From a virus (Duplodnaviria; Heunggongvirae; Uroviricota; Caudoviricetes), in the IMG/VR virus record IMGVR_UViG_3300035698_009402, positions 51,659 to 115,658 of that record: DNA of 64,000 bases. The stretch is one strand, 5' to 3'. Below the pieces are notes generated by a model. It saw only the letters and a program-made list of their open reading frames with translations. It was not told the DNA's origin and searched no databases. Of the stretch, positions 4,400-60,244 are shown piece by piece (position 1 is the stretch's first letter; every line of letters begins with the position of its first letter). The position numbers were made by a program, and so were the translations under genes.

Positions 4400-4435
4400 T
4401 TAATCTTATTAAAAAAGGCGGGAGTAAATCCCACC

Positions 4436-5131
4436 TTAATCTACCTCCCTGCAATAACCTGCTTGTGCAGGAAATGCTGAAGAAACCTTATCTACATAAT
4501 TACTATGTATATTAATTCCCATTTTTTGTAGTGTTTTTCTAGTTCTGTAGTAAAGTTCAAAAATACTTACAGGATTCTCAGAATTTCTATAAAAATAAGT
4601 ACTAGTAACTTTACTATATTCAGGAACCCCCATATTAGTACCTACATCTGCAGTGTTTAATAACGTAGAATTAGGAGTTCTATAAACGGTTTTCTTAACA
4701 AGAGGTACAGTATAGGAATCAAATATCATATCAGAAAATACAGTATTCTTTTCTGGAAATATAGCTACTCCAATAACTCCTAAATTACTAGAACCTTCAC
4801 CCAGCTTTACAGCATAACTATTAGATACATTTTCATCAAATTGAAATCTTCTTTCAGTTTCACTATTTACTCTAAAACCTTTTACTATTATACTAGATTC
4901 TTTATTTATTATGTAACCTCTATTCGAAAATTTACCTGTAGATCCATTAACGACGTCTAACCCATCTACTGTTATTAAAGCTTCTATTCTAAAGTTATTT
5001 CTATTTTCTATTTTTATAGAATAATTAAATCCTTGTCTTGATTCTATATAAGTATTTCTATCTTTATTATATTCAGTAAAGGTATTATCATTATCAGTAA
5101 CAACACTAACTTTTACATTATTTTTATACAT
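4436..5131 (-). CDS. hypothetical protein
   Basis: 231 aa ORF, co-oriented, last gene of the leftward block; no recognisable motif. Confidence 0.45.
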   Translation of the reverse strand: MYKNNVKVSVVTDNDNTFTEYNKDRNTYIESRQGFNYSIKIENRNNFRIEALITVDGLDVVNGSTGKFSNRGYIINKESSIIVKGFRVNSETERRFQFDENVSNSYAVKLGEGSSNLGVIGVAIFPEKNTVFSDMIFDSYTVPLVKKTVYRTPNSTLLNTADVGTNMGVPEYSKVTSTYFYRNSENPVSIFELYYRTRKTLQKMGINIHSNYVDKVSSAFPAQAGYCREVD

Positions 5132-14987: not shown

Positions 14988-16598
14988 ATGAAAGTAGGTA
15001 TTGCACAATGCAATTTTGTTGTAGGGGATATCCCCGGCAACTATGAAAAAATAGTCAAAATTTGGGATGAGAAAGATAACGAAGATTTCGACGTTATTTT
15101 ATTTAGCGAGCTTTGCCTAACAGGTTATCCTGCACAGGATCTGCTGTTAGACAAGGCTTTTTTGTGTTTGGAGCGAGAATATCATTATAAATTACTTGCT
15201 AAACGTAATTATATGAAAACAAGCATTATTCTTGGATTATGCTTGTTGTCTCATACGTCTAAAATATATAATAGTGCTAATCTTATTTCTAATAAAGATT
15301 TAGGTAAAGCTATTGTAAAAACATATCTTCCTAACTATGATGTATTCGACGAAAAAAGATATTTCACTGGATATGGAATAAATGAGTACAATAATATCAT
15401 TGAAATAGTTGATAAAAAATTTGCAGTATTAATCTGTGAAGATGCTTGGGAAATAACTGACGAAGAATTACAAAAGTTATCTGGAGTATTTGGAATATTT
15501 ATCATTAATGCAAGTCCTTGGGATACTTCTAAAATCAACAATAGACTTAGATTAGCGAAGAAATTATCTAAGAAATTAGATTGTTTTGTGTTTTATGCAA
15601 ATCAAGTAGGTGGTCAAGATGAGTTAGTATTTGATGGTACTAGTTTCATTATGAATAACTTACAAGGTATTGAAGCTCAAGCTAAATCTTTTGAAGAAGA
15701 TTTTATTGAGTTAGATTTTAGTAAAACAAGCATTAAACATAATTACATGTTAGGGATAGGAAACTATTCTCAAATGCTAAGAAAAGCCTTAGTACTAGGT
15801 ACTCGCGATTATTTTAGAAAGAATAATTTTAATAAGGCAGTTATAGGTATTAGTGGTGGAGTTGATAGCGCCTTAGTTGCAGATATAGCTGTTGAAGCGT
15901 TGGGTGCAGAAAATGTTCTTGGAATTGGGATGATGACAAAATTTAATAGTCCTCTCACTTTAAAATTAGCTAGAGATTTATGCGTCCAACTAGGAATTAC
16001 TTATAAAGAAATGGATATTAGTAAAATCATTGACGTATTCAGTGATGAATTAGATTATTCCACAGTTGTTCCAAACTTAAAAATGAGCGGGGTACCTTAC
16101 GAGAACATCCAATCTCGAATTAGAGGAAACATTCTCATGGCGATTTCCAATTCACAAAATGCATTAGTATTAAGTACAGGTAATAAGTCAGAAGTGGCAA
16201 TGGGATATTCCACCCTGTATGGGGATATGGTAGGGGGATTTAATCCCTTAAAAGATGTATACAAAACAGATGTATTCAATTTATCTAGACTAAGCAATAA
16301 AATTCCTTCAGAGATTGTTACTAGACCTCCTACTGCGGAATTAGCAGAAAATCAATTAGATAGTGATAAATTACCTGAGTATAGTAAATTAGACGTTATA
16401 CTCAGTATGTATCTTGAAGGAAATAGTAATATTGAGCACGTTACCAGAAGTTATGGAAAAGAACTTGCAGAAAAAGTATATAAAAGCTTAATATTTAATG
16501 AGTATAAGAGACAACAGTCTTGTCCTGGTATTAGAGTTAGTACCAAACATTTGGGCAAAGACCGTCGTTTTCCAATCACTAATCAGTATAAAGGTTAA
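14988..16598 (+). CDS. nadE: glutamine-dependent NAD+ synthetase (N-terminal CN-hydrolase domain + C-terminal NAD synthase)
   Basis: 536 aa; PP-loop GISGGVDSALVA; N-terminal nitrilase-like domain; GGAG RBS. Confidence 0.8.
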   Translation: MKVGIAQCNFVVGDIPGNYEKIVKIWDEKDNEDFDVILFSELCLTGYPAQDLLLDKAFLCLEREYHYKLLAKRNYMKTSIILGLCLLSHTSKIYNSANLISNKDLGKAIVKTYLPNYDVFDEKRYFTGYGINEYNNIIEIVDKKFAVLICEDAWEITDEELQKLSGVFGIFIINASPWDTSKINNRLRLAKKLSKKLDCFVFYANQVGGQDELVFDGTSFIMNNLQGIEAQAKSFEEDFIELDFSKTSIKHNYMLGIGNYSQMLRKALVLGTRDYFRKNNFNKAVIGISGGVDSALVADIAVEALGAENVLGIGMMTKFNSPLTLKLARDLCVQLGITYKEMDISKIIDVFSDELDYSTVVPNLKMSGVPYENIQSRIRGNILMAISNSQNALVLSTGNKSEVAMGYSTLYGDMVGGFNPLKDVYKTDVFNLSRLSNKIPSEIVTRPPTAELAENQLDSDKLPEYSKLDVILSMYLEGNSNIEHVTRSYGKELAEKVYKSLIFNEYKRQQSCPGIRVSTKHLGKDRRFPITNQYKG

Positions 16599-16608
16599 GG
16601 AGATTAAA

Positions 16609-17796
16609 ATGAAATTAACAGAGCAAGAAATCGTAGAACGTACAGATAAATATTTTGTACGTACTAAAAAAGTAGTAGATCACTTCAATAAAGAAATTAT
16701 CGTAAAATATGCAGTATTTATGCGCACAGACGTTCTTGCTGCACTAAATCCTTGTATAGATTTTATTAAGGAACATTGTCCAGATGCTATTATTGAACGT
16801 AAGTTCAATGAGGGGGAGTTTGTTCCCAGTGAAAAGCCTATGATGCATATTACTGGAAAGTTTAGTGATCTAGTTATGTTAGAAACACTACTACTCCAGA
16901 AATTAGGTTTTACGTGTCTTTGTGCGTATAACGCTTATAATATGTCTAAAGCACTTCCACAAGTAGCGTTCATGGATATGCACGCACGTCATGGAACTGG
17001 TGAAGATATGAACCACCTTGCTACTTATGGATGTAGTGTTGGCAGTAAGGTAGCACAGCAAGAAGGTTCCGAAGGTTTTCTGGGAGGTGCGCAAGATATT
17101 ACTGCCAAATACTTCGATAAACTACACGGAATGGGTACTATGCCCCACGCTCTAGTAGGTCTTGCTAAAACTATGTTTCCAGAACGTAATAGTATGGTTG
17201 CAGCAGTTGAGATGTATCTAGAGGCTATGCCTGAAGAAACTAATATTGTAGCACTTGTAGATTATGATGGTAAAGAAATCACAGACGCTTTAGCAGTAGC
17301 CGACTATATGTTAAGTAATCATCCTGAAAAACAATTAAGCATTAGACTAGATACTCATGGTGGTAGATTCTGTGAAACATTAGATTATGCTTCAAGCGTA
17401 AATGTTGTTAGTCAACATATTAGTGATGGTAAAATGACTGAGTATGAAATTATCAGAACAGTTATGGGTGAGACTGCTTTTATGATGGATAGTAATAATA
17501 TTATTAAGGATAAGATCAGAAAGCTTATGTTTGGTACAGGAGTGTCTGCTGCAAACATTATTAATATGAGAAATTACTTGGATGGAGAGGGCTACAATGA
17601 TGTTAGTATTGTAGCGAGTAGTGGATTTGATGTAATCAAATGTGGAGTATTCCGTGAAGCAAACGTTCCAGTGAATATGATTGGTACAGGTAGTTTTCTG
17701 CCTAAGAAATATACTGAAACATATGCTACAGCAGATATTATCGAATATAATGGAATTAAGAGTGTTAAAGTTGGAAGGGAATTTTTAAATGACTAA
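16609..17796 (+). CDS. pncB: nicotinate/nicotinamide phosphoribosyltransferase-family enzyme (NAPRTase-like)
   Basis: 396 aa from ATG 16609 (AAGGAGA RBS); size and motifs consistent with type II PRTase of the NAPRT/NAMPT family; sits between nadE and Nudix/NMNAT. Confidence 0.6.
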   Translation: MKLTEQEIVERTDKYFVRTKKVVDHFNKEIIVKYAVFMRTDVLAALNPCIDFIKEHCPDAIIERKFNEGEFVPSEKPMMHITGKFSDLVMLETLLLQKLGFTCLCAYNAYNMSKALPQVAFMDMHARHGTGEDMNHLATYGCSVGSKVAQQEGSEGFLGGAQDITAKYFDKLHGMGTMPHALVGLAKTMFPERNSMVAAVEMYLEAMPEETNIVALVDYDGKEITDALAVADYMLSNHPEKQLSIRLDTHGGRFCETLDYASSVNVVSQHISDGKMTEYEIIRTVMGETAFMMDSNNIIKDKIRKLMFGTGVSAANIINMRNYLDGEGYNDVSIVASSGFDVIKCGVFREANVPVNMIGTGSFLPKKYTETYATADIIEYNGIKSVKVGREFLND

Positions 17797-21309: not shown

Positions 21310-21384
21310 GAATGTATAGTAGAATGGTTCTGCAACGGGCTTTTAATCCGCTCATAAGGGGTTCGATTCCTAGCGTGCCTGCCA
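21310..21384 (+). tRNA. tRNA-like element or pseudo-tRNA (Lys-UUU-like anticodon arm; acceptor stem does not pair)
   Basis: D-arm GTAG/CTGC, anticodon arm with CUUUUAA loop, GGTTCGATTCC T-loop and ...GCCA end, but 5'/3' acceptor strands are not complementary. Confidence 0.25.
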
Positions 21385-21453: not shown

Positions 21454-21705
21454 ATGAGTAGAACATATAGAAGAAAAAACTTAAAAAAACTTAGACATTT
21501 TTATTGGGGTGATAGTAGCGATCCTACTTTTCACAGAGATAGTCATCATTACTCTAATAGATGGGCTAAAGCAGTAAAAAATCATTCTAATAGTGAAGAA
21601 AGAGCGTATATCAGAGCTAGTTTACATAAAGCTAAAAATGATTACAAATACGATATTCAAAATCGTAAAAAATATTTAAAAAGGTTAATTTGGTGTTATG
21701 ACTAG
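21454..21705 (+). CDS. hypothetical basic protein
   Basis: 83 aa, K/R/H-rich; GGAGGA RBS. Confidence 0.4.
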   Translation: MSRTYRRKNLKKLRHFYWGDSSDPTFHRDSHHYSNRWAKAVKNHSNSEERAYIRASLHKAKNDYKYDIQNRKKYLKRLIWCYD

Positions 21706-22459
21706 TATTCAAATCTATAGTGACTTACATTGCGAATTTGGTTATAAAGTTAAGCCCGAAGACTGTGAGGCAGATATTGTTATCTGTGCTGGAGACTTTA
21801 GTAATAACTTAGATCATATTAAGTTAATGAGAGAGTGGCATCCTAGTAGCAAGATTATTTATATTGCGGGAAATCATGAGTTTTATGGTACTGAACCTCT
21901 TGGAGATAGATACAATAATATCTGTCTAGAATGTATAAATCAAGATATATTTTTCCTACAAAATAACCAAGTTATAATAGATAATATACTATTTGTTGGA
22001 GCTACTTTGTGGACAGATTTTAATTTATACAATAATTATAAATTTGATAGATTAGGGTTTGCTTTATTAAACGATAGCAGACTTATTAGGTACTCCAAAA
22101 ATAGTATCATGAGAGATACTCATTGTACACAAGAATTTAATCATTCTATAAAATGTTTGGAGTATTCTTTAAAACAAAAAAAGTATGATAAAAAAGTAGT
22201 TATTTCACATCACGGTGTTAGTCTACAAAGCGTTCATCCAAAGTATACTCAAAAAGATGTAAACAGTTGTTTTAGTAGCGATTTAACTTCCTTTATTGAA
22301 AAACATCAACCTGATTTATGGGTTCATGGACATACTCATGATAGTCATGATTACCTTATTGGAAACACTAGAGTCTTAACTAATCCTAAAGGTTATGAAC
22401 GTTATACTGGAGAAATTGAGAATAAAGAGTGGAATAGGGGTTTAGTTGTTGAACTATAA
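21698..22459 (+). CDS. calcineurin-like metallophosphoesterase
   Basis: VICAGDFSNN, IAGNHE, HGHTHDSHD metallophosphoesterase motifs. Confidence 0.6.
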   Translation: MTSIQIYSDLHCEFGYKVKPEDCEADIVICAGDFSNNLDHIKLMREWHPSSKIIYIAGNHEFYGTEPLGDRYNNICLECINQDIFFLQNNQVIIDNILFVGATLWTDFNLYNNYKFDRLGFALLNDSRLIRYSKNSIMRDTHCTQEFNHSIKCLEYSLKQKKYDKKVVISHHGVSLQSVHPKYTQKDVNSCFSSDLTSFIEKHQPDLWVHGHTHDSHDYLIGNTRVLTNPKGYERYTGEIENKEWNRGLVVEL

Positions 22460-23112: not shown

Positions 23113-23224
23113 AGATATGGTTAAGGATAAGAAAGTGCGTTTTACTTTCTATAGAGCAGGGAATCTTTATTACGAAACTGATGATGGTTTTGAGTTTCCC
23201 GTACCTATTGAAGATATTGGATAA
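23102..23224 (+). CDS. small hypothetical protein (40 aa)
   Basis: ATG overlapping the upstream stop; MNIKDMVKDKKVRFTFYRAGNLYYETDDGFEFPVPIEDIG. Confidence 0.3.
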   Translation: MNIKDMVKDKKVRFTFYRAGNLYYETDDGFEFPVPIEDIG

Positions 23225-23865
23225 GCAACTTTCCCTTCAGAAGAAAAAGCTATTATGTTTATGAGATATATTAGAAAACATTTAAAGACTTTGGAAGAGG
23301 AATAATGAATAAAGAAGATTTAGTAGGAGTTGTATATTCTCCTAAGTATGGGGGAAATATAGATTCATCGGTAGATAGATTAGATACTAAACTGGTGGAG
23401 CTAGTTTTGTGAAAAAACTTTCCCGAAATACAAAAATATATAAAAACTAAGTATCCTAAGATTTATACATCTAATGTTTTAGATTTTAAGGTTGAGTGGT
23501 TGCCACAAAAAATACTAAATTTATTGTAAAAGAATATGATGGATGGGAATCTGTAGTAACTATGGATGAAATAGATTGGTTATCTACTTAATAAGATAAC
23601 CTATAATAAAATGTAGATAACTGAATATACTAGTTAACATTTTCAGTAAAACTCGTTTATTAATTTAGTAATATTATTTAGCTGAAATATTACAAACAAT
23701 ATAATGCTTGCAGCTATGAGCGTTATTAATGAAATTAATAAAAGGGGATCTACAACCAATTACCGGTTTGGGTCGTCCGGTCAGTAACAAGCAAGAAATA
23801 TAAGACACGATTAGGTTGCGTAAGTTGTATTTCTCTAGAGTTAGATACTGATAAAACCCTGCAAC

Positions 23866-23940
23866 GGTGGAGTAGCTCAATGGTAGAGCGATAGGTTGAA
23901 GCCCTGTGCGTAGTAAGTTCGATTCTTACCTCCATCACCA
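23866..23940 (+). tRNA. tRNA-Phe (anticodon GAA)
   Basis: GGTGGAGTAGCTCAATGGTAGAGC 5' end; anticodon loop UUGAAGC; T-arm GTAAG-TTCGATT-CTTAC; encoded CCA. Confidence 0.8.
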
Positions 23941-27133: not shown

Positions 27134-27206
27134 AGCTGAGAAGGTCGGTACCTAGTTAGTTTTCATAAGACTGATGTAGTGAGTTCAACTCTCACCTTAG
27201 CTACCA
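27134..27206 (+). tRNA. tRNA-Met (anticodon CAU; initiator, elongator or Ile2 not distinguished)
   Basis: Acceptor AGCTGAG/CTTAGCT + A + CCA; anticodon arm TAGTT-TTCATAA-GACTG; T-arm GTGAG-TTCAACT-CTCAC. Confidence 0.7.
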
Positions 27207-30914: not shown

Positions 30915-32135
30915 ATGTTACTTAGAGGAAAACACGCAGAAATTAAAACTTGGACAGAAGGTGTTCATTTGGACGGTAATACAGTAGGTCAGCTAATTAA
31001 GACCGCTAGTTTGCCTATAATTTATAAACATATTGCTGTGATGCCTGATGCTCATTTAGGTATTGGTAGTACTGTGGGTAGTGTTATTCCGACAATTAAA
31101 GCGATTATTCCTGCTGCTGTCGGGGTGGATATTGGTTGTGGCATGGTAGCTGTAAAAACTACTTTACATGCTGATGATTTACCTGATAGTTTAAAAGAAT
31201 TAAGAATGGAAATAGAAGCTAATATTCCTCATGGAGGTCCTGGCAAGAAGGGAAGTTGGGGAGATACTAGATATTCTAGTTGGGAACATCGTCCTACTAA
31301 TATTAGTGTTAAATCTAATAAATTTGCTAAGACTTTCTTAAATATTAGAAAGCATAATCAAATTGCTGAAGCAGATAAAAATAATGCTAGTACTCAATTA
31401 GGTACTTTAGGGAGTGGTAATCACTTCGTAGAAGTGTGTTTAGATGAAAAATCTAATGTATGGGTTATGCTACATAGCGGATCTAGGGGCATTGGTAATA
31501 GAATTGGAAGATACTTTATTCAGAAAGCTATTAGAGAATGTGAAAACTTAGATATTAAATTAGTTGATAGTAACTTAGCTTATTTAATAGAAGGTGGGAA
31601 GCATTTTGACGATTACATTGAAGGAGTTAATTGGGCACAGAACTATGCTGCTTTCAACAGAGAGATAATGATGGAGCAGGCTTTGTTATCTTTGAAAAAT
31701 ATCATAAAAGTACCTTTTACTTATGATGTTAAAGGAATTAATTGTCATCATAACTATGTAACTAAAGAGCGTCATTTTGGAGAAGATGTATATGTAACTA
31801 GAAAGGGAGCTGTTAACGCAGAATTCGGTAAGTTAGGTATTATTCCAGGAAGTATGGGTACTAAAAGTTATATTGTTAGAGGAAAAGGCAACGCTGATTC
31901 TTTTAATAGTTGCTCTCATGGGGCTGGTAGGGTATACTCTAGAAGTCATGCAAAGAAAAATTTCACTTTGGAAGATCATTTAAAAGCTACTGAAGGAGTA
32001 GAATGTCGTAAAGATATTGGAGTAATTGATGAAACTCCTGCTGCTTATAAGAATATAGATGAAGTAATGGCTGCGCAGACAGATTTAGTAGATATCGTAC
32101 ATACTTTAAAACAAGTTGTATGTGTGAAAGGATAA
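30915..32135 (+). CDS. rtcB: RtcB RNA 3'-phosphate/2',3'-cyclic phosphate ligase
   Basis: 406 aa; HSGSRGIGNRIG, CHHNYV, SCSHGAGR motifs typical of RtcB. Confidence 0.75.
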   Translation: MLLRGKHAEIKTWTEGVHLDGNTVGQLIKTASLPIIYKHIAVMPDAHLGIGSTVGSVIPTIKAIIPAAVGVDIGCGMVAVKTTLHADDLPDSLKELRMEIEANIPHGGPGKKGSWGDTRYSSWEHRPTNISVKSNKFAKTFLNIRKHNQIAEADKNNASTQLGTLGSGNHFVEVCLDEKSNVWVMLHSGSRGIGNRIGRYFIQKAIRECENLDIKLVDSNLAYLIEGGKHFDDYIEGVNWAQNYAAFNREIMMEQALLSLKNIIKVPFTYDVKGINCHHNYVTKERHFGEDVYVTRKGAVNAEFGKLGIIPGSMGTKSYIVRGKGNADSFNSCSHGAGRVYSRSHAKKNFTLEDHLKATEGVECRKDIGVIDETPAAYKNIDEVMAAQTDLVDIVHTLKQVVCVKG

Positions 32136-32136
32136 T

Positions 32137-32799
32137 ATGTTTAAATATAATTTACATCAGGAAGTAGAAACCAACGATAAAGGTCGAGATTTTATCGTTG
32201 GTGATCTTCATGGTTGTTATGATGCACTAATAACTCAAATGAAATTTGTTAATTTTAACCAGCAAATAGATAGACTTTTTTCAGTTGGAGACCTAGTAGA
32301 TAGAGGTACTCAAAATATAGAGTGTTTATCTTTATTAAATAAACCTTGGTTTTACGCAGTTATGGGTAACCATGATGAGTTTTTTTGGCAAGGCGTATTA
32401 GAGGATTATAGAATAAATCTTTGGGTGGCTAACGGAGGGGGTTGGGCGGCAGATATAGATATGTGTACGCTATCAGGGTATGCAGAAAAAGTAAAAAATC
32501 TCCCCTTAGCTATTACTATTGATAATAAAATTGGTATATGTCATGCTGAACCCGGTATTGCTTATAAACATAATAATAGTTGGAAACAGTATGTTATGGA
32601 CCCTACTACTCAACAAAATAAGATGTGGGGTAGATATGCAGTTACAAATAGTGTAAAAGCTGAATATACAGATATTATTCGTAGTTACCACGGACATACC
32701 CCTTTAAAAATAGTAAAAGATTTAGGACAAGCAAGATTTATTGATACAGGAGCTTGTTTTGGGTATCACCTAACCTTAGAGGAAATTGATTATACATGA
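32137..32799 (+). CDS. PPP-family serine/threonine phosphatase (lambda-phosphatase/ApaH-like)
   Basis: GDLHGCYD, GDLVDRG, GNHDE metallophosphatase signature. Confidence 0.65.
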   Translation: MFKYNLHQEVETNDKGRDFIVGDLHGCYDALITQMKFVNFNQQIDRLFSVGDLVDRGTQNIECLSLLNKPWFYAVMGNHDEFFWQGVLEDYRINLWVANGGGWAADIDMCTLSGYAEKVKNLPLAITIDNKIGICHAEPGIAYKHNNSWKQYVMDPTTQQNKMWGRYAVTNSVKAEYTDIIRSYHGHTPLKIVKDLGQARFIDTGACFGYHLTLEEIDYT

Positions 32800-33199: not shown

Positions 33200-33216
33200 A
33201 AATTAAAAATTTACAT

Positions 33217-33245
33217 TTGCTTTAAGCAGTAAATTTTAATATAAT
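33217..33245 (+). promoter_or_regulatory. promoter TTGCTT-N17-TATAAT driving the tmRNA
   Basis: Exact consensus; predicted TSS ~33252 at the start of the GC-rich tmRNA region. Confidence 0.55.
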
Positions 33246-33251
33246 AATGAA

Positions 33252-33665
33252 AGTGACGTTGAGGAAATATTTGTTGAAACAAATTGAACGATAGACAACA
33301 CCTCGGGGCAGTACCGAGCGCCTCCACCACGAACACACATTCGGGTCGTAATATCGGATAGATATACTTCGAGTGTTGCTCTGATAGGTCGCAGAATGTG
33401 TGTTTTTGATGGGGGCGAAATAGAATCGACTGATATTTATTAGGTAAGTTGAGAATATTTTTTAGTCACTACGATAAACGCAAATGATAATACTTCATAT
33501 GCAATGGCTGCGTAAGTAGTCAAGCGGGGTCAGTAGCCGTACCTAGCACCAGAAATCGGCTACATTTATAATAACTCATATGGCCAGTATTTAGCAATGC
33601 GCTATCGAAGGGGCCACTCTGTCTGACAGCAGGGAAGAAATATTTGTCAAAATATTTAGATATTG
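33252..33665 (+). ncRNA. ssrA: two-piece (circularly permuted) tmRNA precursor: acceptor piece ending CCA at 33329, intervening segment 33330-33410, coding piece from 33411 with tag ORF 33480-33515 (A)NDNTSYAMAA*
   Basis: Consensus promoter 33217-33245; T-arm CTCGG-GGCAGTA-CCGAG + CGCCTCC + A + CCA at 33302-33329; downstream GGGGGCGAAATAGAATCGAC (tmRNA 5' acceptor motif, complementary to CGCCTCC); GCA AAT GAT AAT ACT TCA TAT GCA ATG GCT GCG TAA tag frame; intervening ACACACATTC/GAATGTGTGT helix; GC-rich, ORF-free; 3' boundary approximate. Confidence 0.6.
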
Positions 33666-34800: not shown

Positions 34801-35277
34801 ATGATGAATATAATTACCGCACCTGAATCCATTTATAATACCCTCGGTCCTAAGCTATTCTTAGCAGGTAGCATCGAAATGGATAAAGCAGAGAAATGGC
34901 AAAAGAAAGTAATCGAACATATCTCTACTTATACAGGTACTGTATATAATCCTAGACGTGAAAAATGGGATAGTACTTGGGAGCAGAAATTAGGCGATAA
35001 TGAATTTACTAAACAGGTAAATTGGGAATTAGATGCTCTTGCAAATAGTGACGTAATTTTTATTTATTTTGACCCTAACACTATCAGCCCTATTACTTTG
35101 ATGGAATTTGGTATTCATATTGAATATAAATATACAATAGTATGTTGTCCAGATGGATATTTTAGAAAAGGTAATGTAGAAGTAGTTTGTAACAGATTTG
35201 GATTACCTGTATACAATACTTTGGAAGATGCTCTAACGAAGTTAGATGCAGTATTAGAACAGTGGCAACGAGACTGA
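34801..35277 (+). CDS. nucleoside 2-deoxyribosyltransferase-like protein
   Basis: PF05014-like pattern: LAGSIEMD ... DPNTISPITLMEFGIHI (conserved Glu in the xxExGxx motif). Confidence 0.45.
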   Translation: MMNIITAPESIYNTLGPKLFLAGSIEMDKAEKWQKKVIEHISTYTGTVYNPRREKWDSTWEQKLGDNEFTKQVNWELDALANSDVIFIYFDPNTISPITLMEFGIHIEYKYTIVCCPDGYFRKGNVEVVCNRFGLPVYNTLEDALTKLDAVLEQWQRD

Positions 35278-35335
35278 GACATCACGGGAGGCTTGGACCC
35301 CTCGGAGCTGGGTTTGATTCCCAGGTCACTGACCA
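35260..35335 (+). tRNA. tRNA-Pro (anticodon UGG)
   Basis: Acceptor CAGTGGC/GTCACTG (C1-G72) + A + CCA; anticodon loop CTTGGAC; T-arm CTGGG-TTTGATT-CCCAG; 5' end overlaps the stop of the preceding CDS. Confidence 0.65.
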
Positions 35336-37109: not shown

Positions 37110-37184
37110 GTCTTTGTAGCATTATGGTAATGCGTCCGCCTCTAAAACGGAAGAAAACGGGTTCAATTCCTGTCAAAGACACCA
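37110..37184 (+). tRNA. tRNA with anticodon loop CUCUAAA -> CUA (candidate amber suppressor); alternative fold has a 9-nt loop
   Basis: Acceptor GTCTTTG/CAAAGAC + A + CCA; D-arm GCAT/ATGC; anticodon stem TCCG/CGGA with a C-A closing mismatch; T-arm ACGGG-TTCAATT-CCTGT. Confidence 0.5.
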
Positions 37185-44209: not shown

Positions 44210-44273
44210 TTTAATGGCAGAACGACGTCTTTACACGGCGTATACGATGGTTCGATTCCTTCAGTGAGTACCA
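44200..44273 (+). tRNA. tRNA-Val (anticodon UAC)
   Basis: Acceptor GCTCGCT/AGTGAGT + A + CCA; anticodon arm ACGTC-TTTACAC-GGCGT; T-arm GATGG-TTCGATT-CCTTC. Confidence 0.7.
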
Positions 44274-44289
44274 ATTTAAGAGGCTAATT

Positions 44290-44690
44290 TTGAAAAATAA
44301 GCATAAGAAGATAGTTAAGGATTTGGTCGGGTACATAAGTGCTCGACCTTTTTGTGTCGGAAATGCAAGAGTTGCTGCCTGTATAATCTATAAAAACAGA
44401 GTTTTTATGGGGAAAACAGGAGAAAAACAGGTACTACTACTCTTAAGTATTTTAAAGAGTATAGCATTTTTCTCCATGCAGAGGTAGACGCTATTAAAAG
44501 AGCAAGTAAAGTTTTGACTGATGAAGAACTTCAAAAAGCTACTTTGTACATAATAAGGGTTCACAAGAACGGTAAATTGGCTCTAGCCCGGCCATGCAAA
44601 AAAGGGTGTCAACAGTTGATTAATGCCTATGGTATTAAAACTGTAATTTATACAACAGATACGGGATTACAAAAGTTGACAAATATGTGA
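44290..44690 (+). pseudogene. cytidine/dCMP deaminase-like gene split by a -1 frame change (pseudogene, sequencing error or programmed frameshift)
   Basis: Frame A gives the N-terminus (VGNARVAACIIYKNRVFMG); frame A-1 (open from 44394) continues with HAEVDAIKRA ... PCKKGC zinc-binding deaminase motifs; the shift lies in the A-rich run GGGGAAAACAGGAGAAAAACAGG (~44405-44435). Confidence 0.4.
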
Positions 44691-44718
44691 CTAACAATTC
44701 CGTAGTCAGGAGATAAAA

Positions 44719-44856
44719 ATGTTTAGTAAGTTAATCAAAAGATTTCAAGAAAATAGAACTATGTCAGCATTGAATAGTTTAGACGACGCTACCTTAAAAG
44801 ATATAGGTATTCACAGAAGTGAAATCCCTTCTTTGGCAAGAAATCTGAATAAATAA
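44719..44856 (+). CDS. DUF1127-family small protein (45 aa)
   Basis: C-terminal LNSLDDATLKDIGIHRSEIPSLAR matches the DUF1127 signature (L.D..L.DIGL.R.dI), a family abundant in alphaproteobacteria. Confidence 0.4.
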   Translation: MFSKLIKRFQENRTMSALNSLDDATLKDIGIHRSEIPSLARNLNK

Positions 44857-44914
44857 GTAGGATAAGCCCTAGGTAGCTATGCTCCTAGGGTTTTCCATTT
44901 GTGTAAATAAAAAT

Positions 44915-44943
44915 AAATTCTATTTGCTTTGAAGAGTTTTTTA
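44915..44943 (+). promoter_or_regulatory. promoter TTGCTT-N17-TATTAT
   Basis: Upstream of the CDS at 44999. Confidence 0.45.
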
Positions 44944-44998
44944 AACTATTATACAAGTAATCCAAGGAAAACCTTTATTAGAGAGAGAGAAGTTTTAT

Positions 44999-50387: not shown

Positions 50388-50915
50388 ATGAAAAATCAAT
50401 TTGTAATTAGCGATACCCATTTCGGTCACGCTAATATACTGACATTTAAGAATTTTGACGGAACTATGACTCGTCCAGAATTTTCTTCTGTAGAAGAAAT
50501 GGATGAAACTATGATTGACAATTGGAATAAGGTTGTTAAAGAAAATGACCGAGTTTACCATCTGGGAGACGTAGTGATTAATAAGAAGTATTTTCATCTA
50601 CTACATCGACTAAATGGTAAGAAGGTACTAATTAAGGGAAATCACGATATTTTTAAGCTAAAGGATTACCTAGAGCATTTTGAAGATATTAGGGCATACA
50701 AGATGACTTCAGAAAGAATTATGCTAAGTCATATTCCTCTACACCCTGAAAGTCTGTCTAGGTGGAACGGTAACATCCACGGTCATCTACATGGAAATAG
50801 AGTGCGTCTATCAAATAAGCAAATCGACCCTAGGTACTTTTGTGTTAGTGTCGAACAAATCAACTATACTCCTATGGAACTATCTGAAGCTACAGAAAGG
50901 CTGCTAAATCAATGA
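50388..50915 (+). CDS. calcineurin-like metallophosphoesterase
   Basis: ISDTHFGH, GDVV, GNHD, GHLHGN motifs. Confidence 0.6.
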   Translation: MKNQFVISDTHFGHANILTFKNFDGTMTRPEFSSVEEMDETMIDNWNKVVKENDRVYHLGDVVINKKYFHLLHRLNGKKVLIKGNHDIFKLKDYLEHFEDIRAYKMTSERIMLSHIPLHPESLSRWNGNIHGHLHGNRVRLSNKQIDPRYFCVSVEQINYTPMELSEATERLLNQ

Positions 50916-51389: not shown

Positions 51390-51418
51390 TTGCTTCTTAC
51401 TGCTTTTTGTCGTATAAT
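51390..51418 (+). promoter_or_regulatory. promoter TTGCTT-N17-TATAAT (full consensus)
   Basis: Followed by GGAGAAG RBS and a GTG start at 51450. Confidence 0.5.
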
Positions 51419-51449
51419 TAGTTATAAATTAAAAACATGGAGAAGATCG

Positions 51450-51806
51450 GTGATTAACATTAGGGAAATTAGTTCAGTAACTATCTTTACTAAAGTTGCT
51501 AAAATCACCCTTAACGATCTTATCACTTTTGTAACGGGCCACGGTTATGTTCCCGGTATGGAAATAACAGTAAATTATTCTACAGTATATGAATATAATA
51601 GACCAGATGACCAAGAAGAAATAATTAGATATGGCGAAATTGACTATACTTATCAAACTTTAAAAGGCACTATGGACATTGAGACAGTATTAGAAAACTA
51701 TGTCGTCAGATATGCTCAAGGTTCTAAAGTATTTACTATTTCACATATTGATTATGAAAACGAAGTTTTCTCGGTGGAATACACAACACAAAAAAGGAAC
51801 TACTAA
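51450..51806 (+). CDS. hypothetical protein
   Basis: GTG start at 51450 with a GGAGAAG RBS, downstream of the consensus promoter 51390-51418 (the longer ORF in the track would include the promoter). Confidence 0.4.
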   Translation: MINIREISSVTIFTKVAKITLNDLITFVTGHGYVPGMEITVNYSTVYEYNRPDDQEEIIRYGEIDYTYQTLKGTMDIETVLENYVVRYAQGSKVFTISHIDYENEVFSVEYTTQKRNY

Positions 51807-52105
51807 TGACAATCGAACCTATTTCTCCAGAAGGGGCTAGACAAGCACATATTAAAAGCATCCCAGACGTAGTTATTGAAATAGTTAATAAGCTATTAAT
51901 TAAACAATCAATATCTGATACTATTTATATTAATCAAATAGATTTGGTTAGAAGTATTGTAAGCCACAGCGATATTACTGCAAATGAATTATTTGACAAT
52001 CATTGGTTGGACTTTGAAGATATTTATAAGGAAAAAAATTGGGAAGTAACTTACAGCAATGAAAATCGCTCTTCCGGTTGGAAATTTAGTAGGAAAAAAA
52101 CTTAA
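51806..52105 (+). CDS. hypothetical protein
   Basis: 99 aa; ATGA overlap; last CDS before the ORF-poor block. Confidence 0.4.
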   Translation: MTIEPISPEGARQAHIKSIPDVVIEIVNKLLIKQSISDTIYINQIDLVRSIVSHSDITANELFDNHWLDFEDIYKEKNWEVTYSNENRSSGWKFSRKKT

Positions 52106-52160
52106 CAATGATTATTGATCTGTATCAGTAAGGGAAACTCAAAATTTTTAAAATTTCATT

Positions 52161-52189
52161 TTGCTTAAAATGGTAAAATTTAGTAAAAT
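52161..52189 (+). promoter_or_regulatory. promoter P1 TTGCTT-N17-TAAAAT (first of three tandem promoters)
   Basis: Spacer AAAATGGTAAAATTTAG shares AAAATTTAGTAAAAT with the promoter at 56190. Confidence 0.45.
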
Positions 52190-52195
52190 ATAAAA

Positions 52196-52257
52196 ACTGA
52201 GAAAAACAAGGAAATCAAAACTTTCAAGGGAAATGACAAAAAAATAAAAATTCACAG
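52196..52257 (+). ncRNA. predicted short transcript T1 (~60 nt) from promoter P1
   Basis: Between the P1 -10 and the P2 -35; no ORF; A-rich with terminal CTGAG.../...TCACAG. Confidence 0.25.
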
Positions 52258-52286
52258 TTGCTTGAAGGTCAAAAATTTCTTATAAT
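52258..52286 (+). promoter_or_regulatory. promoter P2 TTGCTT-N17-TATAAT
   Basis: Full consensus 97 nt after P1. Confidence 0.5.
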
Positions 52287-52292
52287 ATAAAA

Positions 52293-52368
52293 ACAGTGAA
52301 CGGAAGAATGAAAAATAGCTTGAGGGCTTTTAGTAATCACCGAAAGACAAAAAACAAGAATTTCACTG
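52293..52368 (+). ncRNA. predicted short transcript T2 (~75 nt) from promoter P2
   Basis: Terminal 7-bp pairing CAGTGAA/TTCACTG; no ORF; ends at the P3 -35. Confidence 0.25.
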
Positions 52369-52397
52369 TTGCTTCAAACTATAAAATCTTATATAAT
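52369..52397 (+). promoter_or_regulatory. promoter P3 TTGCTT-N17-TATAAT heading the long GC-rich non-coding block
   Basis: Full consensus 111 nt after P2. Confidence 0.5.
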
Positions 52398-54378
52398 GTT
52401 TAAATGATGAGCAGAAACGAAAAACTACTCTGCGGAGAGTGAGTACCACCAAGTTCATAACGGCAAGATACTTAATATTATGCAAATAAATTAGATCAGT
52501 TGTCTGTGATATCAGATGGATGGAGCAAGTATCGGAATATCGGCGGGACCATGAGGGGCCAGGTGTTCAAAGAATTACTAAGTCTAGTGTTGTTAATACA
52601 GACTATAAAGGTTATGATTAACGTAGGTGAATGACGGGTTCGATTCCCGCCAACTAACGATGGTACAAACATCGCTAGTGCCGGAGCAAAAAACTGCAAA
52701 AATTCAAAAATGCGGCAGCATAAATCAGTGAAAAGGGCTAGAATAAGCCTGCGCTAGTACTTAGTAGCTGTTAAAGTGTTTACATGCAAGGTTAGCACTT
52801 TATTAAAAAAAGACGAACAATCGAACTTGTCTGCCTTTCTATAGAAGGTTATAAGTATCCTGCAATAAACGTAGCAGCAATCTTTATTATAAGCCTTTCT
52901 CCGACTAAGGGAAAGCGAATAAAAGTTTACCTCAGAGTCCGAAGAAACTGGGGCACAGATTACAAATGTTGAGCAGCAATTGCGCTCCATTTAAAGAGCG
53001 CGGGTAGGACAAGTTAGATAAGTCAGAAGTCTCATAAACTTCAGGAGTCAGGAGCAGAACCGGCACCCGCAACCAATTACGGAGAGGTAGTTTAAGAAAA
53101 AACATGCGTAAAAATCCAGTATCGAATCTGGTCTTTCCACCAAAATTGTATAGTAAAATTAATGGTAAAACTTTGACTTAATTGTTACGGTATGCTGCTT
53201 CAAGACCAGCCTATACGATGCTATAAAATATGCGTCAGGAATTAGTTTAAAGGAAGAATGCTCTGCCGTATTAGGAGAGATGATATATCGAAAATGTCAT
53301 TCCTGGCTGTATTAACAAATTAATAGTCGTTAGCGTAAACAGGCAAGAGGAAAGGTCTCGAAATCGGGCAAGATAGTATTTATATTATTTTCGGGTAAAG
53401 TAGGATCATACGCCCAAAGCTACACACAGTTGCAAATGTGACCTTTGTAGAACGGAATACTCCGGTTATTAATATTTTTATGTTAGGGTAGTTTAAAGGT
53501 AAAAACGTATTTATTGGGTCGGACCGATAAATAAAATGACAGTGCCATAGCTGTCCCCAAACACCAATTAACGCTTAGTAGCTTAATGAAAAGCTCTCTT
53601 AACAGAGAGATGATGGCTCACACCCATCCTTCGCGGCCAAATACTGTTATTGGTAGTTACAATTACCAGTAATGAAGCAAGGTGTAACCCTTGCGAGAGA
53701 TAGGTTGGCAGTTGAACCTCAACTAACTGCAAGGTAATACTGTTGCCTACTCAACAGTAGTTTTTAACTTTAACCAACTCGCCTTGGGAATAGCATCCCA
53801 CTTCTCACGAAGTGAGACAAGGTGGTAACATATATAAAATAAGCGGCGCACGCTTTATCAGTTAGACGTGTTTAATGTTCTGGAATACGCCGTTCTCCTT
53901 AAATAGTTATCCGTTTTCGTGTGGCCCGATAATCACACCACTAATTTTGCATTCTTTATCTGCAATAAAAATAAAGATAAGGCGTAGCATATCACGAAAG
54001 AACATCGAAGCTAGTTTTGTATGCGATACTAACTTCAAGAGTTTATGTTCATAGCACTAGGGGTGCATAGTATTCTCGCCCTAAGAATAGCGAACACCAG
54101 TTAGGTAAACAGGGACGCAATATATAGCGATTAGTTCTTAATGTTGGTTGAAAGAAAAAGCCTCTATCAACGCCTAAACCAATTAAAATTACTAGATTTA
54201 TCGGTCTAGTAAGAGTATGACTGAACAACAGATGTTAGAGTCTGTAAGGTATAATCGAGGTTAACTACCTGCCTAGTAAGTAAACGATTAGTTTGAGCGA
54301 AATGACAGAAAATATCTAATAGCTCGATAAAAGTGAAACCAAATCTTTTTATTCACCCCCATTTAACAAGGTTAAAAA

Positions 54379-54621
54379 ATGAAATATATTATTGTATTAC
54401 TACTTTTATTAGGATTATCGGCATGTAAAGATAAAGCTATTCCTATATATTCAGTAAGTGAAATAGTTTTTACTGTTTTAGATAATAATAAAGCACAAAT
54501 ACAACGTATTTTTTGTAAAAGCGATTATTGTCATTATACTGTTAGAATAATAACTAAAGACAAGTATAACAATGTAACATATAAAATGTTAACATTTTAT
54601 GAACATGAATTAAAAAATTAA
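54379..54621 (+). CDS. small lipoprotein-like ORF inside the non-coding block
   Basis: MKYIIVLLLLLGLSACKD lipobox; AT-rich island within the GC-rich block. Confidence 0.35.
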   Translation: MKYIIVLLLLLGLSACKDKAIPIYSVSEIVFTVLDNNKAQIQRIFCKSDYCHYTVRIITKDKYNNVTYKMLTFYEHELKN

Positions 54622-55095
54622 AAAAAGAAATGGCGCGTGTGCCAGAAGATTATGGTGACATAATTCAAAGGGATAAGTCCTTCCCGTGTTACTGCAAAGT
54701 AGCATAAAGCACGCAAGTCCCAATTTGTCGATGAACCAATCATCGAAGTATCGGTTAAAACGGTACTAGGGGCAGACAGTTAAGTAGATAGTTCTTTGGT
54801 AAGAATGTGGTGTAGGTAATACTGGCATCTAATAGGAGGTGGAACTCCGGCTAACAATCCAACTTAACAAAAGCTGACTTAATAAGGGATAGATACGGCG
54901 ACAGTCCTTGATTGTCTCAATAATGTGCGAGTGATAATAAACGAGTGCGAGTATCAATATTAGAGGTATACGTTAGAAGCGCAATCTTAAAATATAGTTG
55001 AGTAGGTGGATAACTGAAAAGCATGAGGTGTGTAGTATTTTGTACCTAACAAGGTATGAAGCGACAGAGGTAGCACATCTTTCGGCACATAACCC

Positions 55096-55171
55096 TTGCG
55101 GGTAGGCTAACGGTATAGCCATTTGTCTTTGAAACAAACGTATGCGGGTTCGATCCCCGTTTCGCAAACCA
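55096..55171 (+). tRNA. tRNA-Gln (anticodon UUG), U1; isolated inside the ORF-poor block
   Basis: Acceptor TTGCGGG/TTCGCAA + A + CCA; D-arm GGCT/AGCC; perfect anticodon arm TTTGT-CTTTGAA-ACAAA; T-arm GCGGG-TTCGATC-CCCGT. Confidence 0.65.
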
Positions 55172-55501
55172 TAAAAAACGCAAAGACTACCTCGATAAAT
55201 AACGAAAGTGCTTTAATGCAACACCGTAAGGAATGTTGTCGCTCAAAGATCGCAAGTTGGAGAGTGTTATTAGTACGAAAATCATAAGAGTTAGCGACTC
55301 CTAACAGCTGTAAAAGGTTGATGAAAATAGGACTAATGAGTAGTTATTTATGACAGTGCGCAAGCGATGCACTTTAAAAAACGAAAGCATAGAAGATAGA
55401 TAGTCAGCGGAAGCGGTTATCTGGATAAGCAAGGAACCTCGTAAGGGATAATCTTGTTAAGACTTCTACTAAAAGGTATAATCTCAGCCTTTATTAAAAG
55501 A

Positions 55502-55528
55502 CCTTCTGATTCGTCGGAGGGTTTTTTT
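55502..55528 (+). terminator. rho-independent terminator closing the GC-rich non-coding block
   Basis: Stem CCTTC/GGAGG, 9-nt loop, then GTTTTTTT; CDS at 55542 follows. Confidence 0.5.
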
Positions 55529-55541
55529 GTACCTAAAATAA

Positions 55542-55799
55542 ATGAAGGAGAAAAATATAATGAATTTTGCAGAAGCAACACTAACAGCTATTAGAAATAT
55601 GTTTAAAAGCAAATCATCTTTGAATAAAATAATGTTATGGTTTTTTGGCGGAAGTATTCTTACATTATTAATAGCAATACCTATATGCATAATAGAAATA
55701 AGTATATTCCCAATGTTATTTTTACTAGCAGCTTTTTTCGTAGTAAGTATGTTTTCACTAGTGGTTTTTTTAATGTTAGAAATAAAGGAACTACTATAA
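55542..55799 (+). CDS. membrane protein
   Basis: 85 aa, two TM helices; first CDS after terminator 55502-55528; GGAG RBS. Confidence 0.4.
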   Translation: MKEKNIMNFAEATLTAIRNMFKSKSSLNKIMLWFFGGSILTLLIAIPICIIEISIFPMLFLLAAFFVVSMFSLVVFLMLEIKELL

Positions 55800-55997
55800 A
55801 TGCTAGATAAATGGACTTATAATGATAATGTATGGGAAGACACTTACTACTCTAAAACAGTAAAAGGTTGGTTAATTCATATTAATAGTATTACCAGTAG
55901 TAGAAAAGGTTGTTTATTGCCTCTAGAAAACGGTATGACTTACTACGATAACGGTGTAATAGAATTGACACCTTTATACCATGAACATTTTGTATAG
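55800..55997 (+). CDS. hypothetical protein
   Basis: 65 aa; ATG abuts the upstream stop. Confidence 0.35.
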   Translation: MLDKWTYNDNVWEDTYYSKTVKGWLIHINSITSSRKGCLLPLENGMTYYDNGVIELTPLYHEHFV

Positions 55998-59368: not shown

Positions 59369-60244
59369 ATGAAAAAAGAGATTGATAAGTTAAATATTTT
59401 ATCTAGTAAGTTTATTTTTTGGGATACAGATCATACAGGTTTTTACTATAAAGGACCTGAAGGTGTTTATTATTACAATAAAGAGCATAATTTTAAAGCT
59501 AAACTTCATTACGGAGATAGAGTTGAATTTTACTACGATATTTTAGTTGCTGCCAGATATGTCTATAAGTTAAACACTAATTTTGAATATAAGGAACTAG
59601 AAGAGAAACTAATTACAATAGCAAAAACTAAGACATCTTCATATAAGTTTGGAAAAGATATTGTAGCAGATACTATAGTAGAAGAAAATACTGGTATTAA
59701 GGAAAATACTGGTATTAAGGAAAATACAGTATATATAATAAATAAAAGAGATTTATACTACGATATTTGGACAATATACCCTACTATATTTATGTATATA
59801 CGTGATAATATCTACTATTACTTACAAGGAGAAAATTTTGTAAGAAAAAATAGAGATATTAGAGAAATTGATTCTGCGTATATGGATCAGGAGCATATAG
59901 AGTATCCTTATAATAAGTACGATACTTTATTTGAAAAGTTTGTAAAATTAGATGTTCAAATAATTCCTAAGTATTGTTTGGTTAACAACGTAACTCAAGA
60001 GGAATATGATGAAAAAGTAGATTGTTTTACATATTCTTTCGATTCTATTACATACTGTAGTGATCAAGATATTCCAACAGAAAATTTAAAAAATGTAAAT
60101 ATAAAATATGTAAATATAAAATATGGTACTGCGCAGGATATTACTTTATTTGACGTTAAAAGAGTGAATAAAGAATCTACTACAAGACGAAAAATAGTAG
60201 AGTTAAATAGCATAATTCTCAGTACCATAAAGGAGATTAAATGA
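59369..60244 (+). CDS. hypothetical protein with short in-frame tandem repeats
   Basis: 291 aa; ENTGIK x2.5 (18-bp tandem repeat at ~59683-59730) and NVNIKY x2 (~60093-60128). Confidence 0.5.
   Translation: MKKEIDKLNILSSKFIFWDTDHTGFYYKGPEGVYYYNKEHNFKAKLHYGDRVEFYYDILVAARYVYKLNTNFEYKELEEKLITIAKTKTSSYKFGKDIVADTIVEENTGIKENTGIKENTVYIINKRDLYYDIWTIYPTIFMYIRDNIYYYLQGENFVRKNRDIREIDSAYMDQEHIEYPYNKYDTLFEKFVKLDVQIIPKYCLVNNVTQEEYDEKVDCFTYSFDSITYCSDQDIPTENLKNVNIKYVNIKYGTAQDITLFDVKRVNKESTTRRKIVELNSIILSTIKEIK

Follow-up and report, generated by a model that had tools for sequence, protein, structure and literature searches.

We analyzed a 64-kb stretch of viral DNA (the window; positions 51,659 to 115,658 of IMG/VR virus record IMGVR_UViG_3300035698_009402, class Caudoviricetes) that encodes 30 transfer RNAs (tRNAs) and a transfer-messenger RNA (tmRNA), and we focused on a block at positions 52106-55530 that contains few open reading frames (ORFs). 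The 2.3 kb of this block that lie upstream of an ORF at 54379-54621 are referred to below as block A. On the plus strand, the block carries, in order, three promoters, a structured RNA module (M1), a hairpin resembling the T arm of a tRNA, five tRNA-like RNAs (psiA to psiE), a second structured module (M2), a leader of the manA type with the small ORF, a GOLLD RNA with a tRNA-Gln, and a terminator. In our view, the block very probably represents a conserved island of stable RNAs in a large phage that is AT-rich and has many tRNAs, and the island is built of separate modules that all lie on the plus strand. Comparisons were made with L135 and L136, two uncultivated phage contigs from metagenomes that are related to the window phage. 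Scores labeled R1 refer to a covariance model based on 24 tRNAs of the window itself, each with an encoded CCA end; the model was applied without filters to both strands of the 64 kb. The features of the island are as follows.

52135-52416, plus strand: three tandem sigma-70-type promoter repeats, in units of about 100 nucleotides (nt) (direct-repeat family D1)
52161-52189, 52258-52286, and 52369-52397, plus strand: the -35/-10 pairs of these promoters, TTGCTT-N17-TAAAAT/TATAAT
52467-52568, plus strand: structured RNA module M1, predicted with RNAalifold on the window, L135, and L136
52620-52660, plus strand: isolated T-arm-like hairpin (CGGG-UUCGAUU-CCCG at 52635-52649), R1 14.9 bits at 52631-52650
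52999-53075, plus strand: psiA, derivative of an initiator-like tRNA(CAU), R1 21.3 bits, E 2e-4
53081-53142, plus strand: psiB, R1 24.4 bits, E 2.5e-5
53236-53309, plus strand: psiC, R1 11.3 bits
53482-53566, plus strand: psiD, R1 31.1 bits, E 2.5e-7
53572-53639, plus strand: psiE, R1 18.8 bits; Rfam tRNA 28.2 bits, gathering score 29
53781-53911, plus strand: structured RNA module M2, predicted with RNAalifold on the same three sequences
54190-54354, plus strand: divergent manA-type motif (RF01745-like), recognized by orthology to L136 4921-5091
54379-54621, plus strand: small ORF of 80 amino acids (aa) with a lipoprotein-type signal, MKYIIVLLLLLGLSAC, AT-rich like the phage genes
about 54625-55492, plus strand: GOLLD RNA of about 870 nt (Rfam RF02032)
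55096-55171, plus strand: canonical tRNA-Gln(UUG), found by ARAGORN; Rfam 55.1 bits, R1 65.5 bits
55496-55528, plus strand: intrinsic terminator, AAAAGACCUUCUGA-UUCG-UCGGAGGGUUUU, with a U run extending to U7

An earlier note on this DNA, written from the letters alone, had counted four ORFs of at least 60 aa in the block. The count is right but the division between strands given with it is not, as three of these ORFs are on the minus strand (52496-52699, 52754-52990, and 54973-55167) and one is on the plus strand (54379-54621). The elevated G+C content that the note had described is present (0.37 to 0.41 in the block versus 0.27 to 0.32 in the flanks) but not uniform, falling to 0.27 to 0.31 at 54200-54600, and since a real-looking small ORF lies in this dip, the block is not one continuous unit. 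Apart from the small ORF, the block is non-coding. The signal-to-noise ratio of 3-base periodicity is 0.3 to 0.8 in the block, which is background, compared to up to 27 in clearly coding stretches nearby. Since the window carries a tRNA with a CUA anticodon, we also tested the block for stop-codon reassignment; reading TAG, TGA, or TAA singly as sense gave no long ORFs and nothing beyond what the same treatment gave in the true GOLLD RNA. At the protein level, none of the ten longest stop-to-stop segments had a Pfam or PHROG match that passed threshold (best E about 0.05). Related loci amounting to 1 Mb yielded only chance-level tblastn matches (none better than E about 0.01), and a query of concatenated six-frame translations had no match at an E of ≤0.01 among 5.8 billion proteins. 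These results bear on the possibility that the block is degraded coding sequence, which the earlier note had raised as its alternative, or coding sequence with a reassigned stop codon. The suppressor-type (CUA) tRNA at 37110-37184 and several open stretches of 60 to 85 aa inside the block would fit this explanation, whereas the lack of 3-base periodicity, the outcome of stop recoding, and the empty protein-level searches leave it next to no probability, and we consider it effectively refuted.

A search of a large protein database with the Metallophos protein encoded at 50388-50915 found two closer relatives, with 67% and 65% identity, and the L135 and L136 contigs are syntenic with the window. 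L136 is laid out like the window, with a 2.4-kb gene-free gap, a small ORF, and then a 1.2-kb gene-free gap. In nhmmer comparisons, block A matched L135 with 231.6 bits up to the end of that contig and L136 in four collinear pieces, and the GOLLD RNA matched L136 with 296.7 bits. The order of the island modules is identical in the window, L135, and L136. Coding DNA is about 70% identical between the phages, and the conserved non-coding patches are 70 to 81% identical. Since the adjacent protein is only 65 to 67% identical and neutral DNA would not be expected to be alignable, these non-coding patches are probably under selection. On this comparative evidence, together with the paired changes described below, the island is shown to be conserved in L135 and L136, with base pairs kept by compensatory changes. 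This speaks strongly against decayed coding sequence and decaying pseudo-tRNAs, and it is the outcome that the earlier note had named as a check on its proposal of a cluster of structured non-coding RNAs. That proposal is borne out overall, with the 2.3 kb of block A made up of conserved structured RNAs that have covariation support.

Searches for further relatives of block A gave no homologous region. There was no blastn match of the block to GenBank phages, and no relatives were reached in IMG/VR through the flanking ORFs at 51390-51806, 51806-52105, and 59369-60244. No similarity to block A was found in 113 loci collected through the Metallophos protein from IMG/VR and the Joint Genome Institute (JGI) metagenomes (≤63% identity), whose ORF-free gaps are plain tRNA arrays, or in 21 GOLLD loci fetched by a 3'-end pattern. 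Exact-pattern scans with 19- and 21-mers of block A found nothing, and a pattern for M2 found nothing in viral contigs; its ten matches in genome contigs were in GC-rich genomes (0.49 to 0.72), had no similarity to block A, and were taken as chance. Contigs L139 and L150 to L152, which were found through the same Metallophos protein, were rejected as not homologous in this region.

In block A, the R1 model found a cluster of matches of 11 to 31 bits on the plus strand at 52631-53639, while its maximum outside block A and the tRNA island at 21 to 45 kb was 15 bits. A relaxed ARAGORN run and a relaxed cloverleaf scan were set aside as too noisy. The only Rfam matches in block A were a sub-threshold tRNA at 53572-53636 and a 15-nt T arm. 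The latter is the tRNA-like T arm of the earlier note, which is present but lies at 52635-52649 and not at 52612-52640. This hairpin is preceded by a conserved GUAGGUGAA, its counterpart in L135 is GUAGGUGAAGUAAGGUUCGAGUCCUU, and its stem covaries between the two (CGGG/CCCG versus AAGG/CCUU). A second tmRNA copy was considered here and rejected, as only the 15-nt T arm matched the Rfam tmRNA and permuted-tmRNA models (9.7 to 13.6 bits).

The five tRNA-like elements differ in what they retain of a tRNA. psiA has a 1:72 mismatch, as in initiators, an anticodon loop of CUCAUAA, and an encoded ACCA end, together with a non-canonical D loop that lacks GG and a non-canonical T loop (AGCAGAA). Its orthologues are at L135 13590-13666 and L136 3827-3896, and the three anticodon stems (GAAGU:ACUUC, AAAGU:ACUUU, and GGAGU:ACUCC) are all paired around the invariant loop; the acceptor stem shows a compensatory switch from G-C to A-U. 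In L136 and in three further viral contigs (L153 to L155), the D and T loops of the tRNA(CAU) lineage to which psiA belongs are canonical, and the loss of both elbow partners is common to the window and L135. psiB starts 5 nt after psiA, a spacing like that between true tandem tRNAs, and has acceptor and D stems that are fully paired (7/7 and 4/4), an intact T arm with a near-canonical loop (AUCGAAU), and a CCACCA end, with an anticodon arm that is almost deleted. psiC, which was the only match in a strict cloverleaf scan (0.03 matches expected from shuffled sequence), forms a cloverleaf with 20 of 21 stem pairs and a T loop of AUCGAAA; its 7-nt anticodon loop (CCGUAUU) lacks U33, it has no CCA, and L135 13826-13893 is a possible counterpart. 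The anticodon arm of psiD consists of a 10-bp helix with a 6-nt loop at its tip, the T loop has 8 nt, and the end is ACCA. The same architecture is found at L135 13672-13754, with the helix paired at 10 of 10 positions in both phages in spite of different distal sequences (UUGG..CCGA versus AUAC..GUAU) and with an acceptor stem that covaries. psiE has a short anticodon hairpin (4 to 5 bp with a 4- to 5-nt loop), a T loop of the form NUCRCAC, and a CCA end, all of which are kept in the three phages (orthologues at L135 13904-13974 and L136 3976-4044); there are compensatory changes in its acceptor, anticodon, and T stems, and its D stem is identical in the window and L136. A CCA end is thus encoded in four of the five elements, and two pairs of elements are spaced by 5 nt. 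L136 has a further tRNA-like RNA at 4701-4772 (Rfam tRNA, 38.4 bits) with a 5-nt anticodon loop and a CCA end, which does not occur in the window.

None of psiA to psiE combines a score at the RF00005 gathering threshold with a 7-nt anticodon loop containing U33. psiE, the only one of the five matched by the Rfam tRNA model, comes closest; psiB, psiD, and psiE have no 7-nt anticodon loop, psiC lacks U33, and only psiA has a normal loop. The tRNA-like nature of all five is established. Since their stems are kept by compensatory changes and their aberrant features are shared between phages, they do not look like pseudogenes that are drifting apart.

The two modules on either side of this array matched no Rfam family in scans of 52400-53000 and 53640-54400. 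M1 is predicted to form a long-range helix (52467-52473/52527-52533) around a hairpin, followed by a hairpin of 9 to 10 bp (52535-52544/52558-52568) with a conserved loop, GGGACCAUGAGGG; five instances of this 3' hairpin have a covarying stem and keep the GGGACNNNGAGGG loop. M2 is predicted to form a helix (GCCUUG/CAAGGU) around a 9-bp hairpin and then a second domain closed by GGUAAC/GUUAUC. In the consensus structures, 96.6% of cells are paired for M1 and 92.6% for M2. The number of pairs changed on both sides was 13 for M1, compared to 5.0 ± 1.7 in shuffles (0/500) and 0 to 2 when the partners were slid, and 11 for M2, compared to 4.0 ± 1.6 in shuffles (0/500) and 1 to 3 when slid; covariation in the predicted structures is therefore significant for both modules. 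Across 1.11 Mb of related loci, covariance models of M1 (R3) and M2 (R2) matched only the window, L135, and L136, with three tandem copies of M1 in L136.

Upstream of M1, the promoter repeats are diverged from one another, but their hexamers are invariant in an alignment of the three, and each copy has an A-rich stretch upstream. The pattern TTGCTT-N17-TAWAAT occurs 7 times in the window, compared to 0.54 expected, with one copy upstream of the tmRNA, and the repeats are kept in L135 and present as four copies in L136. The promoter at 52369-52397 with which the earlier note had opened the block is real and is the third of the three tandem copies. The intrinsic terminator that it had placed at the end of the block was confirmed at 55496-55528, where the fold has 14 pairs (a 9-bp G/C-containing core plus A-U pairs), a free energy of -15.6 kcal/mol, and a z-score of -4.5.

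Our initial reading, which was based on the R1 scores, was that block A is a decaying tRNA array, in which the tRNA-like elements are pseudogenes and the rest is junk carried along with GOLLD. The relatives of the neighboring gene do lie in dense tRNA arrays, some with a GOLLD inside; the psi elements are spaced roughly as tRNA-sized units, have scores much lower than those of true tRNAs, and are without canonical T, D, or anticodon loops; and psiA is a degenerate member of a tRNA(CAU) lineage whose copies elsewhere are canonical. However, the aberrant features are shared by phages whose coding DNA is only about 70% identical, with stems kept by compensatory changes, and the lesions concentrate in the anticodon arm, while the acceptor arm, T arm, and CCA are retained. 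The significant covariation of M1 and M2 and the invariant hexamers of the three promoters also argue against decay. We dropped this reading once the conservation and compensatory changes in L135 and L136 were found, and we now regard it as very improbable.

In the 3' half of the block, the identification of the GOLLD RNA (Weinberg et al. 2009) is secure. The Rfam model RF02032, which represents only the conserved 3' domain of GOLLD, matched 55023-55490 with 169.7 bits (gathering score, 150; E 7e-46) over model positions 1-416 of 416. The window RNA consists of a variable 5' domain at about 54625-55022 and the conserved 3' domain at 55023-55490; the 5' domain has no ORF, aligns to the 5' domains of six other GOLLDs and to L136 over its whole length, and has local fold z-scores of -3 to -6. 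The orthologue at L136 5363-6237 scored 160.3 bits. GOLLD RNAs have a two-domain layout, many of them exceed 800 nt, and a tRNA in the linker is a known feature (PMC12286853). The window RNA is likewise two-domain, phage-borne, and located beside tRNA genes, with a tRNA inside its variable linker, and is a new member of this known family. The linker tRNA is the tRNA-Gln(UUG) at 55096-55171, which the earlier note had recognized and which ARAGORN and Rfam confirmed, and an orthologous tRNA lies inside the L136 GOLLD. The window copy differs from the nearest GOLLDs found in carrying Gln(UUG) instead of Arg(UCU). It also differs from known GOLLDs in that no strong private promoter was recognized for it and in lying last, on the 3' side, in a conserved island with other structured RNAs.

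A linker tRNA was also found in the GOLLDs of L027, L125, L127, L128, L131, and L136; it is nearly always present in this GOLLD clade, with varying identity. It is Arg(UCU) in seven loci (L123, L125, L127, L128, L131, L132, and L133), is called Ser(GCU) in one contig seen as two loci (L027/L119), and is Gln(UUG) in the window and L136.

The resemblance of the block to GOLLD and ROOL that the earlier note had suggested is thus genuine for GOLLD, within the last 0.9 kb only, and no ROOL signature was found. In the Rfam comparison that it had called for, GOLLD was above the gathering score, and ROOL, HEARO, OLE, RNase P, group I and II introns, and rRNA had no match at the gathering score in the window and none at an E of ≤10 in 51800-55800, 52400-53000, and 53640-54400. 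The RNase P P4-like motif that it had pointed out near 53350, GAGGAAAGGUC, is accordingly unsupported.

Between M2 and GOLLD lies the manA-type leader. In L136, the sequence at 4921-5091 is a manA RNA (59.1 bits; gathering score, 55.2) directly upstream of a small ORF. The orthologous window copy keeps the P1 hairpin, the pseudoknot, P2 and the other internal hairpins, the GAGC/GCUC helix, and the terminal hairpin, as well as the conserved single-stranded blocks UGACUGAA, UAAGGUAUAA, and GUGAAACCAAAUC, so that the structural description of RF01745, including its UGACUGAAUAA and UAAGGU blocks, applies to the window, and there are several compensatory changes in its helices relative to L136. By these structural comparisons, the manA relationship of the leader is shown to hold. 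The manA motif is a riboswitch candidate found in 5' untranslated regions (UTRs) of marine bacteria and cyanophages (PMC2864571). The window leader resembles this family in its passing L136 orthologue, in its helices, pseudoknot, and conserved blocks, and in its location in the 5' UTR of a phage gene; it differs in having AU-rich stems and scoring under every Rfam threshold, which may be a consequence of these stems, and in its downstream gene, which is a tiny ORF that is not conserved and is not a gene of sugar, nucleotide, or photosynthesis functions.

The leader ends 24 nt before the ATG of this ORF, a layout that is the same in L136, and an AAGG lies 9 nt upstream of the ATG. The 80-aa product had no homologue among 5.8 billion proteins, and its sole PHROG match was weak (family 1119, Cor-like; E 0.03). 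In L136, a non-homologous 74-aa ORF occupies the same slot behind the manA RNA, and the difference between these ORFs suggests a variable small gene under a conserved leader. A second manA RNA (60.7 bits) was seen at L005 10044-10212, at the edge of a dense phage tRNA array, and manA motifs may often accompany phage tRNA islands.

With the modules identified, we considered whether the 3.1 kb from the promoters to the terminator could function as a single giant RNA that represents a new structured class and in which GOLLD would be the 3' domain. All of the elements share one strand, most of the recognized promoters are at the 5' end, a strong terminator is present only at the 3' end, and the module order is kept in three phages. 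There is also an 18-nt complementarity of 53746-53763, in a hairpin after psiE, with 54989-55006, at the GOLLD domain junction, although at 83% this pairing may be chance. On the other hand, the tRNA-like, manA-type, and GOLLD modules are separately recognizable families, an ORF with a signal peptide lies inside the 3.1-kb stretch, and no long-range helices between modules were found. Other GOLLDs start from a private promoter immediately before the 5' domain. Relative to the window, L136 has M1 in triplicate, a fourth copy of the promoter repeat, and insertions that exceed 300 nt between M2 and manA (several hundred extra bases at 4347-4835), and these duplications and insertions between modules suggest that the modules are independent. 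We therefore find a single giant RNA improbable. The suggestion in the earlier note of one large RNA or an unknown class spanning the whole block is not supported, as the block is modular and interrupted by an ORF.

For the preferred reading, a conserved island of separate stable RNAs, we propose that the tandem promoters would drive one or a few long precursor transcripts. From these, host tRNA-processing enzymes could excise the tRNA-like cloverleafs and the tRNA-Gln, with RNase P acting at the 5' ends and trimming of the 3' ends to the encoded CCA, and this excision would free M1, M2, and the tRNA-sized RNAs as separate stable RNAs. Since psiB, psiD, and psiE have the acceptor/T "top half" and a CCA end without an anticodon loop, they would act as tRNA mimics and not as decoders. 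The manA-type leader would control the small ORF in cis. By analogy, the window GOLLD may fold into a multimeric cage, as cryo-electron microscopy (cryo-EM) showed for another member of the family, a homo-14-mer; an oligomeric cage is known for GOLLD env-38 only (PMC12286853).

Several points weigh against the island reading. The island occurs in only three genomes, and in one of these the L135 contig breaks off at the equivalent of about position 53930 of the window. Four stretches (52660-52998, 53143-53235, 53310-53481, and 53915-54189), together about 1 kb, are less conserved and unexplained. The covariation statistics of M1 and M2 come from three sequences, with structures predicted from those same sequences. 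The window manA-like copy is below the Rfam threshold, with no match in 53640-54400 at an E of ≤10. For block A, the minimum free energy (MFE) z-scores are modest in both halves (-1.3 and -2.3), and that of the GOLLD 3' domain is no better; these z-scores and the count of GNRA and UNCG tetraloops are uninformative, as even the true GOLLD was inseparable from background. A terminator-like hairpin at 53738-53768 is weak (z-score of -1.1), and there may be one or several transcripts. Finally, we infer the co-transcription, processing, and stability of the island RNAs from sequence features.

The setting of the island resembles that of known tRNA arrays. Units of such arrays have been described in phages and bacteria (PMC4758250, PMC5966550; Morgado 2020, as cited in PMC12286853), and some of them include pseudogenes and some include a GOLLD. 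As in such arrays, the window elements are in tandem on the same strand, tRNA-sized, about 5 nt apart, and beside a GOLLD, in a genome of about 30 tRNAs. In contrast, none of the five elements is canonical, three of them cannot decode, and their aberrant architecture is conserved with compensatory changes, which would not be expected of pseudogenes.

Non-decoding tRNA mimics include the tRNA-like domain of tmRNA, the bacterial Y-RNA-like YrlA, and the stable RNAs of the phage T4 tRNA cluster. The window elements share with them an acceptor/T "top half," mostly with CCA, and an anticodon arm that is swapped for another helix, and like the T4 stable RNAs they are encoded among phage tRNAs. The resemblance is architectural only, as there was no Rfam match to YrlA and the similarity to tmRNA was limited to the 15-nt T arm. 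No TROVE domain, the protein companion looked for in connection with YrlA, was found among the larger window ORFs scanned.

A bolder proposal is that the island is a co-expressed toolkit of new RNA classes (M1, M2, and non-decoding, CCA-ended mimics) that works with the GOLLD cage, which we put forward tentatively and consider rather unlikely. If so, the island RNAs could serve the cage as its cargo or as partners in its assembly; another possibility is that they are decoys for host enzymes or for defense nucleases that act on the acceptor/T half of tRNAs. GOLLD is among the largest bacterial and phage RNAs without an assigned function, its cage structure was solved only recently, and a cargo, partner, or decoy role, if true, would give a first functional handle on it. 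If made together, the island RNAs would be natural candidates for GOLLD partners and a concrete, testable set. The architectures of M1, M2, psiD, and psiE are candidate new RNA families for curation of the Rfam type. We found no earlier description in the cited literature of this conserved, strongly promoted company of GOLLD, which is documented here in three metagenomic genomes.

Other features of the collected loci and of the window are as follows. The neighborhood of Ro60/TROVE proteins is a known setting of Y-RNA-like tRNA mimics. At 4574-9662 of L150, a more distant relative, a Ro60/TROVE protein is encoded beside 3 kb of gene-free sequence that contains tRNAs, but this sequence has no homology to block A. 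The tmRNA of the window, at 33213-33564, is of the permuted (two-piece, alpha) type (alpha_tmRNA, 85.1 bits; tmRNA_permuted, 74.3 bits), and a TTGCTT-N17-TATAAT sequence of the block A promoter class at 33217-33245 overlaps its annotated start. The tRNA at 37110-37184 with the CUA anticodon is of the amber suppressor type, is called "Pyl" by ARAGORN, and scores 74.8 bits with R1. TAG terminates only 5 of 57 long plus-strand ORFs, and recoding does not explain block A. Two stretches of about 790 nt each (23113-23905 and 44210-44998) have no ORFs of at least 70 aa and a G+C content near the genome mean. Three tRNA-like matches of 29 to 36 bits (21310-21384, 27134-27206, and 35260-35335) are not reported by ARAGORN with default settings; the one at 27134-27206 has a CAU anticodon, and no tRNA-Met is called anywhere in the window at those settings. 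RNA repair and nicotinamide adenine dinucleotide (NAD) genes are interspersed with the tRNA island (14988-17796, 21698-22459, 30915-32799, and 50388-50915); they encode an NAD synthase, a phosphoribosyltransferase-like protein, an RtcB RNA ligase, and three calcineurin-like phosphoesterases.

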